IMG/VR virus record: IMGVR_UViG_2675903425_000022
Direction: 5' to 3' (one strand)
Length of the DNA stretch: 9,881 nt
DNA from: a virus
Lineage: Duplodnaviria; Heunggongvirae; Uroviricota; Caudoviricetes
The notes under the pieces are model-generated. The model was not told the DNA's origin and did no database searches. It was given only the letters and a program-made list of their open reading frames with translations. Position numbers and translations under genes: made by a program. Positions 750 to 6,210 of the stretch are shown here, piece after piece (position 1 is the stretch's first letter; each line of letters starts with the position of its first letter).

Positions 750-1496
750 TTACTTCACAACCCTCATATTGCTGACATTTGGACGCCAGCTATCCCAGTT
801 AAACGTCACCCATCGACCACCGTTCATGGTCATGCGGTCCATAATCCTCTCACCAAGAAGTGTACTCATTGCGGCATGATTCAGGTTTGTTAACATCCCG
901 ACACTGCACAGTGATGCTGTCCGGCGATCAATTATCTGGTGTAATACCACCTGCTCGTTTTTCGTCTCCCGCTGAACGCCTATTTCATCCAGGACCAGCA
1001 AATCAACACTGCAAAGCTCCTGTAAAAATTTTTCCCCGGATTTGCCGTTGTCGTAGCTGTCATGCAACACGCTCATGACATCAGACACGGTGACGATAAT
1101 CACGCTGCGCCCCTTCGCCATCAGCCGGTTACCCATCGCCGCTGCAAGGTGATTTTTCCCGGTGCCGGTTTTACCGCTGAACACAAAATTCGTGCACCCG
1201 GTCATCAGTTCGTCAGCTATGGATTTGGCCTGGCTCAGCGCGTATTTTTGCCCGTCGTTCTGCACCTGATAATTCGCAAACGAGCATTTGCTGTGCAGAG
1301 GCTGGATGCCCGAACGATTCAGGATTTTTTCCACCCGCAACTGGTGATTCTGGCGGTTAATCTCCTCGCTGCGTTTTCGTCCTTCAGCAAGTTGCCATTC
1401 CCGCCACTCCTCCACCGTCCGGTACGGTGGAACCGACGCCTGTGGTGCAAGTCTGCGAATACGTTCAAGAACCCCGGCTGCCGCAATGTTTTTCAT
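750..1496 (-). CDS. DnaC-like replicative helicase loader (phage replication protein, AAA+)
   Basis: 248-aa ORF. Contains GKTGTGKNHLAAA (E. coli DnaC has GKPGTGKNHLAAA, recalled) and a Walker B-like DLLVLDEIG, with a C-terminal LGERIMDRM...WVTFNWDSWR tail resembling DnaC. ATG at 1496 with GGGGGTGA upstream; it starts 6 nt after the stop of the upstream initiator gene. Confidence 0.9.
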   Translation of the reverse strand: MKNIAAAGVLERIRRLAPQASVPPYRTVEEWREWQLAEGRKRSEEINRQNHQLRVEKILNRSGIQPLHSKCSFANYQVQNDGQKYALSQAKSIADELMTGCTNFVFSGKTGTGKNHLAAAMGNRLMAKGRSVIIVTVSDVMSVLHDSYDNGKSGEKFLQELCSVDLLVLDEIGVQRETKNEQVVLHQIIDRRTASLCSVGMLTNLNHAAMSTLLGERIMDRMTMNGGRWVTFNWDSWRPNVSNMRVVK

Positions 1497-1502
1497 GCCA
1501 CA

Positions 1503-2594
1503 TCACCCCCTGAATCCCGGCGGAATTTCGGTATCCGGTTCAGAAATATGATTCACACAACGCTGGTTGTTCGTGCCGCTTACCGGGAGCAACCAGGGGT
1601 TTTCAAAATTCCGGTCCGGCCCAAAAAACGTCGTCGCTCGCTGAACAAATTCCGTTCCCGCTTTCCCGGTCGCCGCCAGGTATCTCGCGTAACGCCTCAC
1701 ACCATCCAGCATGGTCTCTGGTGGCACCCCCTCGCGCAATCTGGCCTTCCAGGCACTGAAAGCGGATTTCTTCGGGTTTGCCCCAGCACGCAACGGGTAT
1801 TCCCGCCAGACCTGTTCGAACACATCCGGATAATCCACTCGTCCCACAGACTGCCCGGTGCTTTCCGGGACTACCCGATCGGCTTCCCGCTGAATGGCGG
1901 AATCGGCTTCAGGCTGCTGCAGTTGGTGTGATTGCTCCGACCCTGCGGTCATCACCTGCTGCACAGCGCCCGAATCGGCTTCCGGTGTCGTGCCTGCTGG
2001 CTGACCAGGATTGACGGTCTGAACATCCCCTGCCTGGTTCGTGGTGTTTTTTTTGCCATGAACCATAGTGTTTTTGTCCTGTTCCTGTTCTTTCTCCTGC
2101 TCCTGTTCCTGTTCTTGGCTTCGAAGCCCCTTAAAAGCCCCTTCGAAGCCCCTTACCGAATTTCGGCTATTATTCCGCCTCACATCCAGATGGAAATCCG
2201 TTTTATATCTGTCGTAAAACACTGACAGAAAAGCGTTTTCAGGTAATGATGCATACTCATTCCTGACACCTGCACAACGGTTATCGCCAGGCTTCAACGT
2301 TTCCCCAACCTGCCAGGCTGCCATTTCATGGACCCAGACCATCTCTGCATCATGGTCATAGCTACAAAAACCAGCTTCAACAGCCCTTTTAAGCCCCTTT
2401 GAAGCCCCTTCCAGACCAAGCCCGGTTTCATGAGCAAGGTATAAAACTGGCAGGTAATACAAACCCAGCATATTTGCGTGAGGGGATGTCATCAGGTAAA
2501 AAGCAACAACTTGCGCTTCTGCACCCGCCTTTCTAAGTTCTCTCCCCGTTTCTCCCAGCCAGAATCGCGGAGAAACTTTTGCGTAATCACGCAT
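1503..2594 (-). CDS. Replication initiator / replisome organizer (O-like); alternative upstream start at 2705
   Basis: Long ORF immediately upstream of, and tightly coupled to, the DnaC-like gene, which is the classic O-P arrangement. I place the start at M38 (MRDYAKVSPRFWLGETG..., top CAT 2592-2594) because GAGGT lies 5 nt upstream; the longest ORF start (2705) has no Shine-Dalgarno. The gene contains two clusters of iteron-like repeats and an (EQ)n linker (see repeat features). Confidence 0.65.
   Translation of the reverse strand: MRDYAKVSPRFWLGETGRELRKAGAEAQVVAFYLMTSPHANMLGLYYLPVLYLAHETGLGLEGASKGLKRAVEAGFCSYDHDAEMVWVHEMAAWQVGETLKPGDNRCAGVRNEYASLPENAFLSVFYDRYKTDFHLDVRRNNSRNSVRGFEGAFKGLRSQEQEQEQEKEQEQDKNTMVHGKKNTTNQAGDVQTVNPGQPAGTTPEADSGAVQQVMTAGSEQSHQLQQPEADSAIQREADRVVPESTGQSVGRVDYPDVFEQVWREYPLRAGANPKKSAFSAWKARLREGVPPETMLDGVRRYARYLAATGKAGTEFVQRATTFFGPDRNFENPWLLPVSGTNNQRCVNHISEPDTEIPPGFRG
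2078..2113. repeat. Imperfect tandem hexanucleotide repeat (CCTGTT)n, about 6 units, in frame within the initiator gene
   Basis: Read directly: cctgtt cctgtt ctttct cctgct cctgtt cctgtt. On the minus strand it encodes QEQEQEQEKEQEQ in the initiator. Confidence 0.8.
2123..2154. repeat. Iteron-like cluster 1: three tandem copies of (G/A)AAGCCCCTT at 11-bp spacing
   Basis: Read directly: GAAGCCCCTT (2123-2132), AAAGCCCCTT (2134-2143), GAAGCCCCTT (2145-2154). Flanked on the low-coordinate side by the hexamer repeat and a T-rich stretch (2040-2076). Confidence 0.7.
2382..2410. repeat. Iteron-like cluster 2: three tandem copies of the AAGCCCC(T)TT unit at about 10-bp spacing
   Basis: Read directly: AGCCCTTTT, AAGCCCCTTT, GAAGCCCCTT. 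Same core as cluster 1, about 230 bp away, inside the same gene. Confidence 0.7.
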
Positions 2595-2672
2595 GGCTAC
2601 CTCATCTGGTGCCGAACCTTCCTCCGGATATAATCTGTGGTTCCCAATCGACAGAACCAGAGGAGGTTCGAC

Positions 2673-3128
2673 ATGTATTTTTTGAAAAGCCTTTATCAGG
2701 CTCATGTATTAAATGTTGCAGCAACAAACCGCTGGTGTAACAGCCCCGAAATGCTCCCGGATTACAGAGCCTGGCTGCGCGCCGAAACATACCTTCGTCT
2801 CGACATATTGATTAGCGAACTTCAAAAAGAGACTGCATCCATTCATAACCTTCAGGGTATCGACGCTGTTCGCATTCTGGTATCGCGCCATAGTGCTCTC
2901 TCAATAATTGAAGTGCGTCATCTCTCTTTTTCTGAACTGATTTTCTTGCTTCAACCAGCTCTGGAATCAGCGAATATCCCGCCGGAAGTGATCCAATACC
3001 CACCTCATGTTGACGAGCAGTTACAAGATGTGCCATACAACCAGCGTGCTGGATTGACTCCCTGCTCAGAGGCTGAATGGGATCACTCTCTGCTGAAGAA
3101 ATACCAAGATTTGTATAATCCTCAATAA
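2673..3128 (+). CDS. Hypothetical protein (151 aa) antisense to the minus-strand operon; candidate independently expressed moron
   Basis: ATG at 2673 is preceded by a perfect AGGAGG (2660-2665, 7-nt spacer) and a perfect TATAAT (2629-2634) about 38 nt upstream. No family recognised from the translation (MYFLKSLYQAHVLNVAATNRW...). It overlaps the minus-strand ORF 2812..3321; only one of the two may be real. Confidence 0.3.
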   Translation: MYFLKSLYQAHVLNVAATNRWCNSPEMLPDYRAWLRAETYLRLDILISELQKETASIHNLQGIDAVRILVSRHSALSIIEVRHLSFSELIFLLQPALESANIPPEVIQYPPHVDEQLQDVPYNQRAGLTPCSEAEWDHSLLKKYQDLYNPQ

Positions 3129-3321
3129 GCCCGGCACACGCTTCTGCATCAGCCAGCTTTATTCTGGTTTCCTTGCGCTGTTCTCTGGCTGACAAACGCC
3201 AGAGCAGCGCATTAGCTTTATGTATCAACCACTCTGCCAGCTCCACATCAGATAAACCGCCACGCCAGATGTGCGGACTGTTTTCGTAAACGCTCAGTGT
3301 CAATTTTTTGTCATTACTCAT
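2812..3321 (-). CDS. Hypothetical protein (169 aa) between the CII-like gene and the initiator
   Basis: ORF in the same orientation as the operon, with ATG at 3321 starting 13 nt after the stop of the YdaT-like gene. Weak Shine-Dalgarno (TGGGTAA); an alternative GTG start at 3372 would overlap the upstream gene. The translation is charged and helical-looking (MSNDKKLTLSVYENSPHIWRGGLSDVELAEWLIHKANALLWRL...). No family recognised. Confidence 0.4.
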   Translation of the reverse strand: MSNDKKLTLSVYENSPHIWRGGLSDVELAEWLIHKANALLWRLSAREQRKETRIKLADAEACAGLIEDYTNLGISSAESDPIQPLSRESIQHAGCMAHLVTARQHEVGIGSLPAGYSLIPELVEARKSVQKKRDDALQLLREHYGAIPECEQRRYPEGYEWMQSLFEVR

Positions 3322-3334
3322 ATTTATTACCCAA

Positions 3335-3825
3335 TTAATGCACAGCCAGAGTGTTTCCTGCCGGGCCACCACGATTCATCTGATCGAACAGAACGATCGC
3401 TGATGCAACGAAATCATCAATATCTTTCACCAGCCGTTCCTTCGTCTCTACCAACTCCCGAAAATAAGCGGAACTGTGGCTGCGCATTCGGGCCACCAGC
3501 GGAGGCGGCATCGCTTTTTCGATCGCTGGTAACAACGCCTGAATTTTTTTAACCGCATCAGGAGTGTCTTTCTCCACCCAGCGGAAAATTTTCTGAGTAT
3601 TGCGAGCCATGGCTTCCGGATGGCTGTCGTCATACAGTTCCGGGAACGTCATTCCCAGCTCGAAATACGCTTNNNNNNNNNNNNNNNNNNNNNNNNNNNN
3701 NNNNNNNNNNNNNNNNNNNNNNGCTCGAAATACGCTTTGGTAATTTTCGCAGCCGGTACTTTTTCGCCGTCCGGATGCGCCCAGGCATTCATCGCCATGC
3801 GGATGTGTTCATGCTTGATTTTCAT
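3335..3825 (-). CDS. ydaT: YdaT-like (CII-analogous) regulatory protein; ORF interrupted by a 50-N gap
   Basis: ATG at 3825 (top CAT 3823-3825) with GGAG 7 nt upstream. N-terminus is MKIKHEHIRMAMNAWAHPDGEKVPAAKITKAYFE up to the gap, and the translation resumes after it as LGMTFPELYDDSHPEAM...GNTLAVH. Removing the gap and one copy of the duplicated 15-mer gives a continuous 426-nt ORF (141 aa), the size recalled for YdaT. Position after the Cro-like gene fits. Confidence 0.7.
3673..3722. other. Run of 50 N (scaffold gap), flanked by identical 15-mers
   Basis: gctcgaaatacgctt occurs at 3658-3672 and again at 3723-3737, immediately on either side of the N run. Confidence 0.95.
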
Positions 3826-4081
3826 GAATCAACTCCGGCGCATTTGATGTGTTAACCTTACATCCAACAGGTAAACCGTCGGTTGGGTTAGGATAAATAT
3901 CTGGGCGGATTTCATGCGGGGTAACTTCCCACTTCATTAGTTGGCATAACGGAATTACCTGCTTTGGGGGAACGCCAAAGCTAAACCATTGCCAAACAGT
4001 CTGTTGAGCGACCCCCATATAACGACCTATTTCAGCCTGAGTGTATTTCTGCCTAATTTTTTCGCGAGTGCTATCTAGCAT
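3809..4081 (-). CDS. ydaS: Cro-like HTH regulator (YdaS-like), first gene of the minus-strand early operon
   Basis: 90-aa ORF with a classic HTH (TQAEIGRYMGVAQQTVWQW). ATG at 4081 with GGAGG 6 nt upstream. It is divergent from the plus-strand repressor-like gene across a 108-bp region holding a perfect palindrome. The 3' end overlaps the YdaT-like start by 17 nt. Confidence 0.75.
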   Translation of the reverse strand: MLDSTREKIRQKYTQAEIGRYMGVAQQTVWQWFSFGVPPKQVIPLCQLMKWEVTPHEIRPDIYPNPTDGLPVGCKVNTSNAPELIHENQA

Positions 4082-4189: not shown

Positions 4190-4591
4190 ATGATGAGCGC
4201 CCTAGAAGTATCTATGTACAGAATCAGCAAGCTTCTTCAGGAAACTGGATGGAGCCAGGCTGAGCTTGCCCGTAGAATTGGTGTGACACAACAAACTGTT
4301 CAACAATGGGTCAGCGGTAAGGCTACACCTAAAGCCTCAAGTTTGGATAAACTGGTTGAGGTTTCAGGGCATCCATTGCATTGGTTTTTATTGCCTCCTG
4401 AAGAGTGTGAGCAAATTTTCACCCCTGACACGATGAAAATTGGTCCTCGCCAACGCGAACTGCTCCAAGCTTTTAGTGCGTTTCCTGAGGAAGACCAAGA
4501 AAAAATGCTTCAAGAAATCAAAGACAAGAAAAAATCAATGGAAGAAACCATTGCTAGGTGGCTGGCGGCACAAAAAAGCCGCCGGGCGTGA
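4190..4591 (+). CDS. paaR2: HTH (XRE-family) transcriptional regulator, PaaR2-like; occupies the CI-repressor position
   Basis: 133-aa ORF with HTH (SQAELARRIGVTQQTVQQWVSGK) and no LexA-type peptidase domain. It is first in a three-gene operon with a 63-aa antitoxin and a ParE toxin, matching the paaR2-paaA2-parE2 arrangement recalled from E. coli O157 prophage CP-933P. There is no Shine-Dalgarno before ATG 4190, so it may be leaderless or start at ATG 4214. Confidence 0.75.
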   Translation: MMSALEVSMYRISKLLQETGWSQAELARRIGVTQQTVQQWVSGKATPKASSLDKLVEVSGHPLHWFLLPPEECEQIFTPDTMKIGPRQRELLQAFSAFPEEDQEKMLQEIKDKKKSMEETIARWLAAQKSRRA

Positions 4592-4618
4592 CCACAGTAC
4601 AAGAAGAGGAGTTATGCC

Positions 4619-4810
4619 ATGGGTACAGCCCTTTCTCCGATAGTTTCAGAATTCGAAACTACCGAACAAGAAAACAGTTACAACGAATGGTTGCGCACTA
4701 AAGTAACGTCAAGCCTTGCAGACACTCGCCCCGCAATTCCACATGACGAGGTAATGGCTGAAATGGAAAATCTTATTGCTCAAATTGCTGTAACTAACAA
4801 GAGCGAGTAA
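4619..4810 (+). CDS. paaA2: Small antitoxin of the ParE module (PaaA2-like)
   Basis: 63-aa acidic ORF (MGTALSPIVSEFETTEQENSYNEWLRTKV...). GAGGA 8 nt upstream of the ATG; its stop overlaps the toxin start (TAATG). Size and position match PaaA2 as recalled. Confidence 0.7.
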   Translation: MGTALSPIVSEFETTEQENSYNEWLRTKVTSSLADTRPAIPHDEVMAEMENLIAQIAVTNKSE

Positions 4811-5097
4811 TGTTACCCATTTTATGGCTACCGTCTGCTCGCGATGATTTGCGCCAGATCATAACTTACATCGCCAAGGAGAACCCACCGGCAGCACGTA
4901 GACTAAAAATACGCATTGAAACATCGGTATTACCTCTATCTGAGCATCCGTACTTATATCCACCAAGCGAACGGGTTTCTGGATTGAGAGAGATCGTGAC
5001 CCACCCTAACTACATAATCCTGTACAGAGTAGCTGCTTCAAGCATTGAGATTGTAAGCGTGACACATTCTCGGCGACAATTTCCCTTCTCTATCTGA
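4810..5097 (+). CDS. parE2: ParE/RelE-family toxin (ParE2-like)
   Basis: 95-aa ORF translationally coupled to the antitoxin. Sequence ...RQIITYIAKENPPAARRLKIRIETSVLPLSEHPYLYPPSERVSGLREIVTHPNYIILYRV... is typical of ParE/RelE-fold toxins. Confidence 0.8.
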   Translation: MLPILWLPSARDDLRQIITYIAKENPPAARRLKIRIETSVLPLSEHPYLYPPSERVSGLREIVTHPNYIILYRVAASSIEIVSVTHSRRQFPFSI

Positions 5098-5531: not shown

Positions 5532-5660
5532 ATGGATTTCGACACAATCATGGAAAAGGCTTACGAAGAATACTTCGAAGGCCTTGCCGAAGGCGAGGAA
5601 GCTCTCAGCTTCAGTGAGTTTAAACAGGCGCTTTCCAGTTCGGCAAAATCTAACGACTAA
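5532..5660 (+). CDS. YdfB-like small protein (42 aa); absent from the supplied ORF track because of its size
   Basis: ATG at 5532 lies 1 nt after the upstream stop, with AGGTGAG upstream. Translation MDFDTIMEKAYEEYFEGLAEGEEALSFSEFKQALSSSAKSND ends at TAA 5658-5660. Confidence 0.6.
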   Translation: MDFDTIMEKAYEEYFEGLAEGEEALSFSEFKQALSSSAKSND

Positions 5661-5671
5661 CGGAGTTAAAG

Positions 5672-6210
5672 ATGGAATTTAAAGATTTACTAAAAGAAAT
5701 CCAGGAAATTGCAGCACATGCACTTCACCAACGTCTGAACGAAGTTGAATTAGAATCTGCAACGAAGAAATACATTGATAATATGGCTCGTAATGTGCGC
5801 GATGCGTTTACCGGATTGTACTCTGTTTCGGTAACAAACAACCAGAATACTGAAGAAACTGCAAAGCGGATTGCCTCGGTGATGGGTTTTCATGTCGAGG
5901 AAAAGTATTCAAAAAAAGAATTCTGGAAAACTACAAAAAAATTGCAGAGCGAGAACTGTCATCTCCTGCGGCAATCGCTTCTTTCTATGAGGAAAGTTAT
6001 TCAGATGACACAGGATTACCGGAACTGCTCTCATTACTTGAAAAATTCGGAATTATCATGAAAGGGACTGCGTCGGCGGATTTCACATACTCAATGATGG
6101 CTGCTGATGGAGAGCCTTTTCCTCCCGAACTTAAAATAACCCCCGGCAATCATCCGATGGTAACAATAAGAGCAATAGAGAATTACTGGTTTAATCCAGT
6201 TCAACAATAG
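5672..6210 (+). pseudogene. ydfC-position gene split by a -1 frameshift at A7 runs (apparent pseudogene, sequencing error, or programmed slip)
   Basis: Frame-2 ORF 5672-6061 (GGAG 6 nt upstream) reads naturally to ...EEKYSKKEF, then becomes Cys/His-rich and low-complexity. The -1 frame is open from 5854 to TAG 6208-6210 and reads naturally (IAERELSSPAAIASFYEESYSDDTGLPELLSLLEKFGIIMKGTASADF...NYWFNPVQQ). Two A7 runs (5911-5917, 5935-5941) sit at the transition. Confidence 0.5.

Follow-up and report, generated by a model that had tools for sequence, protein, structure and literature searches.

The window analysed here, a stretch of 9,881 nucleotides (nt) from the IMG/VR record IMGVR_UViG_2675903425_000022, is the immunity and replication region of a lambdoid cryptic prophage of the Escherichia coli O157 CP-933M/Sp4 type. 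The interval 2595-3334 (740 bp) is the exact gap between the start of the replication initiator gene and the stop of the ydaT-like gene. It holds a two-gene module, inherited as a unit, whose members we call A (plus strand) and S (minus strand). The two genes converge, and a single stretch of DNA, read on both strands, supplies the ~100-105 C-terminal codons of either gene. It is very likely that both are real genes under selection. Our explanation as a whole, in which A would serve the lysogenic and S the lytic state while their convergent transcription keeps the two apart, we regard as fairly probable.

2673-3128, plus strand: gene A, encoding an ECs1072-family protein of 151 amino acids (aa) (ATG 2673, stop 3126-3128); NF033230, RefSeq coding sequence WP_000273724.1
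2812-3321, minus strand: gene S, encoding 169 aa (ATG 3321, stop 2812-2814); phrog_8304, absent from the RefSeq annotation
2812-3128, both strands: dual-coding overlap of 317 nt, tail to tail

A preliminary description of this DNA had reported the two antisense open reading frames (ORFs) and the 317 nt that they share, and our analysis places them at the same coordinates. It had treated them as alternatives, and this part does not hold, as both are conserved genes. Conservation is not confined to the minus-strand ORF, the outcome it had named as counting against a plus-strand gene; A is conserved too. In the overlap, codon position 1 of one gene faces position 1 of the other, and position 2 faces position 3.

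Two conserved genes on opposite strands

Gene A is antisense to the early operon and reads in the same direction as the cI-like repressor gene. Its product matches the NCBIfam family NF033230 with 105.7 bits (cut-off 70, E = 2e-30) over profile positions 3-141 of 142. Protein searches returned full-length relatives of 151-153 aa in E. coli, Salmonella, Serratia and metagenomic prophages, with identities to the window protein down to ~30%. Residues 1-46 (window 2673-2811) lie outside the overlap and carry the strongest motif of the A family, PDYRAWLRAETYLRLD. The ratio of non-synonymous to synonymous substitution rates (dN/dS, NG86) is 0.06-0.40 in this part, and variability follows the order codon position 3 >> position 1 > position 2 (3 > 2, Wilcoxon P = 4e-7). 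The AlphaFold model, made from just 9 sequences, has a predicted local distance difference test score (pLDDT) of 89.5 and a predicted template modelling score (pTM) of 0.85. It predicts with confidence an all-alpha fold without known relative, and a Foldseek search of the model against BFVD gave no match. These results, together with the invariant start signals described below, bear out the earlier suggestion that the plus-strand ORF is a genuine protein-coding gene running against the early operon. RefSeq/PGAP annotates A as the sole gene of the pair and leaves the minus strand of the gap empty; PHROGs, in turn, has no entry for A. The single trace of ECs1072 in the literature is an entry in a microarray table (PMC2241611).

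Gene S starts 13 nt past the ydaT stop and is read in the sense of the early operon; its longest form would use a GTG start at 3372. In the O157 record examined, RefSeq does not annotate it. The S protein matches phrog_8304 over its full length (E = 4e-120, residues 1-169 of 169) with very high bit density, indicating that this PHROG contains near-identical members only. Homologues of S, 146-197 aa long, form 23 clusters at 50% identity from E. coli, Salmonella and metagenomic prophages, and their identity to the window protein also falls to ~30%. In a Salmonella subgroup S has 192-197 aa and the overlap is ~392 nt. Residues 1-64 (window 3129-3321) are outside the overlap and include the strongest S-family motif, SPHIWRGGLSDVELAEWL. 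Here dN/dS (NG86) is 0.04-0.38, and variability again follows the order position 3 >> position 1 > position 2 (3 > 2, Wilcoxon P = 1e-7). The ribosome site of S had been called weak, which is correct for the window lineage (TGGGTAATAAATATG); most other lineages have AGGAG.

The orientations of the two genes are constant in all lineages examined: A is co-directional with the repressor and integrase genes, and S with the cro/cox and replication genes. A occurs alone, without S, in one lineage (L004). Among the loci examined, none has S without A.

Persistence of both reading frames and selection in the overlap

The DNA of 15 distinct lineages was compared. In 12 of them both ORFs are uninterrupted, run towards each other and keep one and the same relative frame, with overlaps of 260-323 nt; in the remaining three, S is either frameshifted (L041 and L096) or absent (L004). 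The chance that one frame stays open, given the protein encoded by the other, was calculated by exact dynamic programming over synonymous codons and multiplied over 10 lineages. For S given the A protein this probability is 0.005-0.31 per lineage, with a product of 10^-12.4; for A given the S protein it is 0.012-0.14, with a product of 10^-13.0. When L002, which is close to the window, is left out, the products are 10^-10.3 and 10^-12.2, respectively. Synonymous sites are saturated between the groups that remain, and the lineages can therefore reasonably be treated as independent. L004 provides a natural control: S is absent and the S frame carries 7 stops, where 7.1 are expected. The pair has been retained far beyond chance, and the two ORFs are not by-products of each other.

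These results bear on two readings in which a single gene is real. One follows RefSeq: only A is a gene, and S is a long antisense ORF that stays open as a side effect of the A sequence. It agrees with the annotation of A alone by RefSeq/PGAP, with the weak ribosome site of S in the window, with the poor structure model of S and with its frameshifts in L041 and L096. However, it does not account for the first 64 codons of S, which lie outside A and have low dN/dS and position 3 as the most variable, for the AGGAG before S in most lineages, for the 23 clusters of the S family, for an openness of S of ~1e-10 to 1e-12 given the A protein, or for the 7 stops in the frame of L004 that lacks S. We consider it very improbable. 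The other follows PHROGs: only S is a gene, and the plus-strand ORF, for all its TATAAT, AGGAGG and ATG, resembles one by chance. PHROGs indeed holds S and not A, S matches the direction of the operon, and a promoter scan passes no sigma-70 site for A. Nevertheless, the conservation data already contradict this reading, since A scores above the NF033230 cut-off, has low dN/dS in the 46 codons outside S, persists without S in L004 and has a model with pLDDT 89.5. Its ribosome site and ATG are invariant, the same cassette stands before at least 12 other ORF families, and the openness of A given the S protein is ~1e-12 to 1e-13. That A is a mere look-alike is barely credible.

Taken over the whole overlap, the codon-position variability profile is flat. 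Segment by segment, the overlap is a mosaic of A-type and S-type codon patterns, with the following variabilities at position 3 and position 2:

A residues 48-94: A-type, 0.63 vs 0.41
A residues 105-125: A-type, 0.66 vs 0.46
S residues 66-92: S-type, 0.44 vs 0.33
S residues 113-122: S-type, 0.48 vs 0.24

Pooled, the A-type segments give P = 1e-8. A alone would give the reverse of the S-type pattern, and the S-type segments coincide with the motifs YxxLGxS, DPIxPLSxEA and PxGYxLLPDL, which are kept in the most distant S proteins. The constraint on the overlap alternates, with roughly A residues 48-125 owned by A, and S residues 66-92 and 113-122 owned by S. Purifying selection is clear in both non-overlapped parts; in the overlap it is clear for A, and for S it has support only in the two segments, which were picked post hoc.

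A number of observations weigh against our explanation. Those on S and on function are given here, and those on expression with the start signals below. The two S-type segments pooled reach P = 0.014, and they were picked after the residue conservation map, so that this value is post hoc. OLGenie-like estimates in the overlap (dNN/dSN and dNN/dNS) are 0.385 for A and 0.55 for S. In neutral simulations the median was ~0.7, 28% of the simulations reached the value observed for S, and 7-10% reached that for A. We did not count this estimate as evidence because the simulations showed it to be biased low and underpowered in this frame. The structure model of S is poor (pLDDT 60.5, with residues 74-122 below 50). 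It contains a long helix at residues 25-71 and is mostly helix and disorder overall, and a Foldseek search of this low-confidence model against the PDB gave no match. Such a model would fit a pair in which the overlapped half of one partner is loosely structured. S is frameshifted while A is intact in L041 (~3460-3640) and L096 (~3390-3705), suggesting that S is the more dispensable partner; the frameshifts may represent recent decay or sequencing errors. As for function, neither A nor S has a match in Pfam or in PDB sequence profiles.

An intact S of the L041 type is present in many other genomes (P0025, 48 members).

The main rival to our explanation concerns the overlapped tail of S. It holds that the tail is kept open for the sake of translation itself and not for its protein sequence, only the N-terminal ~90 residues being functional. 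Ribosomes kept on the early mRNA along the ~300 nt that are antisense to A would guard the downstream replication genes against Rho-dependent polarity. A naive dN/dS of ~0.6-1.4 for S in the overlap is what this reading expects, as are the inverted codon pattern and very low identity of S residues 123-169 and the disorder of residues 74-122 in the model. The S stop falls into three classes, with overlaps of 260-269, 317-323 and 392 nt, and the calibrated selection test is compatible with neutral evolution combined with stop avoidance. On the other hand, the three S motifs are kept in the most distant S proteins, several motif positions are better conserved than the A residues they face, and the motif segments carry the S-type codon pattern. 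Moreover, the window leaves ~217 nt untranslated from the S stop to the start of the initiator, so the protection would be incomplete. We judge it unlikely that the tail serves translation alone.

The 5' cassette, a second antisense pair and the cargo slot

Upstream of A lies a short cassette of conserved blocks, and downstream of it a hairpin:

2607-2622, plus strand: block 1 of the 5' cassette (TGGTGCCGAACCTTCC), at the left edge of the module and in the place of a -35
2629-2636, plus strand: -10-like box, TATAAT at 2629-2634 and overlapping TAATCT at 2631-2636; putative promoter element
2653-2675, plus strand: ribosome-site block AGAACCAGAGGAGGTTCGACATG, including AGGAGG (2661-2666) and the start codon (2673-2675)
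3174-3211, plus strand: strong hairpin, a possible terminator for A, 46 nt past the A stop and inside the S coding region

We aligned the 130 nt upstream of A from the 15 lineages. Homology starts abruptly at TGGTGCCGAACCT(T/C)C, which is block 1. This block is conserved in 15/15 lineages and before at least 12 unrelated payload families, and occurs as a single copy in the window. The -10-like box and a variable spacer follow, and the alignment closes with the near-invariant ACAGAACCGAAGGAGGTTCGACATG. Within the ribosome-site block, which is near-invariant as a whole, the AGGAGG-N6-ATG of A is invariant in all lineages, and the ribosome site and start codon are certainly functional signals. 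The preliminary description had credited the plus-strand ORF with a complete set of expression signals. Its TATAAT and ATG are where it put them, and its AGGAGG is present one base to the right of the 2660-2665 given, 6 nt before the ATG. This set is conserved in part: the ribosome site and ATG are kept throughout, and the putative promoter has a perfect TATAAT in window-type lineages only, a TAnnnT box elsewhere, and no -35.

The same arrangement, consisting of TGGTGCCGAACCTTCC, the TAnnnT box, the spacer and AGAACCRRAGGAGGTTCGACATG, forms a cassette of 68-71 nt (window 2607-2675) with at least 12 unrelated small ORF families behind its ATG. The pattern GAACCNNAGGAGGTTCGACATG occurs exactly in at least 120 IMG/VR contigs, from which the following payload counts are drawn (loci L098-L212):

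payload A: at least 36 contigs
payload 97-aa family (phrog_4753): at least 26 contigs
payload 151-155-aa family (A2): at least 26 contigs
payload 67-83-aa family: at least 17 contigs

Further payloads include a BssS-family protein and several others. Literature searches with the sequence strings of the cassette found none, nor did we find a description of the wider cassette system in the literature.

The TAnnnT box is a plausible promoter for A, judged from its sequence and position. Perfect TATAAT is confined to E. coli lineages of the window type and is replaced elsewhere by GATAAT, TATATC, GATAGC and similar. The TAnnnT register is common to all (TAATCT, TATCCT, TAGCCT, TATTCT), and TACTCT is also found among the cassettes. 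The sigma-70 promoter scan found no site with an acceptable -35, and ~5 chance occurrences of a lone TATAAT are expected on both strands of 9.9 kb. We found no transcript, start-site or translation data for either strand in the literature, and our sequence strings were absent from the transcription start sites in the supplements of PMC10469882. A sigma-54 or sigma-E reading of block 1 was considered and rejected by eye, as spacings and motifs do not fit.

The fold of 3120-3235, which holds the hairpin at 3174-3211, has -34.9 kcal/mol (z = -3.0), and 0 of 200 shuffles were as good. This hairpin is retained only in four close E. coli lineages, and its U-tract is imperfect; no A terminator is conserved across the lineages. 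Block 1 and the ribosome-site block are also reverse complements of each other (inverted repeats I1/I4, formed with 2656-2673). In a minus-strand RNA the two would fold into a hairpin (window 2599-2673, -35.2 kcal/mol, z = -3.3) that ends ~10 nt ahead of the ribosome site of the initiator. Lineages altered in one arm (L078, L096 and L004) show no compensating change in the other; the contigs of the large cassette set all share the right arm, by which they were collected. Rfam gave nothing real within 2300-3700.

One of the payloads, A2 (151-155 aa), is part of a second convergent antisense pair. Its partner S2 has 125-139 aa (phrog_37051), the overlap is 194-239 nt, and the frame relation is the same as that of A and S. 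Four to five divergent lineages carry this pair (L004, also L108, L129, L150 and L184). In L004 it stands as follows:

5554-6009, plus strand, and 5771-6187, minus strand: A2 and S2, directly past the solitary A

The probability that A2 is open given the S2 protein is 0.011-0.094 per lineage, with a product of ~1e-7 over four lineages; that of S2 given the A2 protein is 0.03-0.27, and its product is just ~3e-4. Profile comparisons revealed weak collinear similarity between S and S2 (E = 2e-4), at the N-terminal IxxGxLxxxELxxWL motif, and between A and A2 (E = 5e-4, 64 columns). These similarities suggest that the whole overlapping module may have been duplicated long ago. At several loci the slot between ydaT and the initiator holds, behind the same cassette, A/S, A2/S2 or other cargo, and its behaviour is that of a hot spot where cargo is exchanged.

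An antisense ORF of 110-117 aa covers nearly the whole of the 97-aa payload (phrog_4753), over 273 nt (L200, L201, L209, L210 and L120). This ORF starts with MSEKITI; several S homologues start with MSEKITL, and the window S with MSNDKK. This could be a further instance of dual coding, or else a scar left by recombination at the S-side boundary.

Genomic setting, possible roles and relation to known systems

The genes on either side of the module are:

750-1496, minus strand: DnaC-like loader
1503-2594 (RefSeq start), minus strand: replication initiator, phrog_1701/3729
3335-3760, minus strand: YdaT/CII-like gene, PF06254, phrog_163
3809-4081, minus strand: YdaS/Cro-like gene
4190-4591, plus strand: cI-like helix-turn-helix gene
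4619-4810, plus strand: RelB-like gene
4810-5097, plus strand: RelE/ParE-like gene

The CII-like gene and the initiator are thus the neighbours that the preliminary description had named. The PHROG matches of the initiator start at residue 38 of its longest ORF. A run of N (window ~3652-3700) masks the middle of the ydaT-like gene and makes ORF lists split it; RefSeq has a single protein of 141 aa. The genes at 4190-5097 are homologous, in CP-933M, to the three-gene paaR-paaA-parE toxin-antitoxin system of the immunity region, which has been studied in CP-933P; there, ydaT is directly followed by o (PMC8630535). A YdaT box, TTGATT-N6-AATCAA, has been defined for CP-933P and Rac (PMC11879457). 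The window has a perfect one, TTGATTTTCATGAATCAA, at 3815-3832 in the 3' end of ydaS, the expected place of a YdaT-activated PRE-type promoter. The box was rejected as an activator site for the A promoter, as there is none near 2595-2640 and a site with 2 mismatches at 2808-2825 is at chance level.

The window has counterparts of 100% identity in more than 400 complete genomes of E. coli O157:H7, and near-identical DNA is present in more than 450 complete E. coli genomes. The guanine plus cytosine content of the module, 0.47-0.50, is the same as that of its flanks in a base composition comparison. Searches with tblastn of 50,697 deposited phage genomes (INPHARED) gave no match to A or S, and megablast against INPHARED matched the ydaT part alone. 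Scans of GTDB genome contigs with the A and S profiles gave nothing. The A/S module was met only in prophages and in contigs predicted to be viral.

In the mechanism that we propose, A would be expressed in the lysogen from the TAnnnT box of the cassette, while the early operon is under repression. This promoter lacks a -35 and is therefore probably activator-dependent or weak. S would be made when the early operon fires. The two transcription units would collide over at least 260 nt and yield fully complementary RNAs, each depressing the other. Collision and complementary RNAs together would be expected to lead to reciprocal, state-specific expression. We put reciprocal expression by convergent transcription forward as a possibility, with some reserve. 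By analogy with olg1 and gene 10 of phage Fc02, and because the slot in the immunity region swaps its cargo, A may serve the lysogenic state and S the lytic state with accessory functions, for example superinfection exclusion or modulation of the host. A role in exclusion or defence as such is a speculative and rather unlikely assignment, drawn from that analogy. The action of A on the lysis-lysogeny decision or on superinfection, which the preliminary description had proposed, would likewise be conjectural. PADLOC, run on A and S from three lineages, returned nothing beyond one chance-level match (E = 0.03).

A different role would be that of a mutually neutralising pair of the toxin-antitoxin or abortive-infection type, in which the overlap couples inheritance and the antisense RNA sets the ratio of the products. 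The strict co-inheritance of the two genes, with S never found without A, would fit, as would the position of the module in the immunity region beside the paaR-paaA-parE system and a slot that swaps cargo like defence hot spots. Yet A and S match no model of a known defence, toxin or antitoxin system in PADLOC or Pfam, and A persists alone (L004) or with a frameshifted S (L041 and L096), a poor fit if A is the toxin. We consider such a pair improbable.

Returning to accessory functions under reciprocal expression, the proposal can be extended, with considerable doubt, to a family. Enterobacterial prophages would then carry cargo slots with a portable ~70-nt cassette on one side and two tail-to-tail antisense proteins, the overlap acting as a bistable lysogen/lytic antisense toggle. 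Such an overlap would hard-wire a mutually exclusive choice between a protein of the lysogen and one of the lytic state, and would bind the two partners in each slot (A/S, A2/S2 and perhaps others) to joint inheritance and joint evolution.

The nearest described case is that of olg1 (sie1)/olg2 and gene 10 in the Pseudomonas aeruginosa phage Fc02. In that phage, olg1 (sie1) shares the transcription of the repressor, gene 10 belongs to the early operon on the other strand, and each of the two confers superinfection exclusion (PMC9936078). The likeness consists in antisense protein-coding genes in the immunity region, one repressor-oriented and one in the early lytic operon past the cro/ner analogue, a topology that we met in all lineages examined. 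Fc02 is a Mu-like transposable phage, and the likeness drawn here is one of arrangement. The opposite transcript covers the whole of gene 10 in Fc02, where three ORFs overlap, whereas A and S are two equal-sized genes placed tail to tail. RNA-seq and exclusion phenotypes support the Fc02 genes, whereas A and S are known here from sequence comparison; conversely, A and S have deep comparative evidence, and none was presented for Fc02.

Antisense overlapping genes have also been reported from E. coli O157:H7 itself, among them ano, asa, pop and three genes of EDL933 (PMC5960689, PMC6294744, PMC7103648, PMC9927249). Like A and S, they are long ORFs antisense to annotated genes in the same organism, where annotation pipelines allow one of the two. 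In the parts of these reports considered here, ano and pop are described as (almost) completely embedded in an older annotated gene and asa just as antisense-overlapping, and the evidence is mainly RNA-seq and Ribo-seq. Compared with ano and pop as portrayed there, neither A nor S is embedded, and each has its own conserved, non-overlapped N-terminal domain and ribosome site. Unlike ano, asa and pop in the same accounts, A and S are conserved to ~30% identity across many prophage lineages.

In phage lambda, the leftward oop unit from pO runs from the start of a replication gene, antisense to the gene on the cII side. It produces a 77-nt non-coding RNA with its own terminator. The A unit resembles it in starting at the replication gene and running antisense toward the cII side. 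It differs from oop in encoding a conserved protein of 151 aa, in having no Rfam match and in taking other positions in other prophages. We tried the A unit as an oop-type antisense RNA and rejected it, as it has a conserved protein, no Rfam match and no fixed position at cII/O. The lambda precedent invoked earlier is thus apt for position only. The module is also found directly after cro, or in Salmonella elements of the Cox/integrase type, and is therefore not tied to the cII/O junction.

The morons of lambdoid phages, known from comparisons of HK97 and HK022, are independent promoter-gene-terminator units between operon genes. A/S may similarly be an accessory unit set between genes that are described as adjacent in a relative (ydaT and o in CP-933P, PMC8630535), and A opposes the operon and has its own start signals. 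In contrast to a moron, each strand of the unit carries a gene, and one of these two genes joins the host operon. Its base composition is like that of its neighbours, its promoter and terminator are predicted ones, and its 5' signals are a shared portable cassette.

The pair has consequences for annotation. RefSeq/PGAP and PHROGs each keep one gene of it, and gene callers drop the other. The shared 5' cassette could serve to find more small accessory genes in prophages.

To our knowledge, long antisense overlaps of two real protein-coding genes are widely doubted in bacteria, and well-conserved pairs are rare. Most proposed cases are based on expression data for young ORFs embedded in older genes. 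A and S provide a clean comparative case, in which two genes of equal size, each with its own conserved domain and ribosome site, share ~100 codons and are kept down to ~30% identity, an arrangement that is possibly repeated in A2 and S2. As a test system, the pair could be used to study how two proteins share one stretch of DNA, as the constraint is visibly partitioned between them, whether overprinting yields disordered tails, and whether a convergent overlap acts as a toggle between lysogeny and lysis. If the last is true, these prophages would carry a conserved, genetically encoded antisense toggle made from two protein-coding genes.

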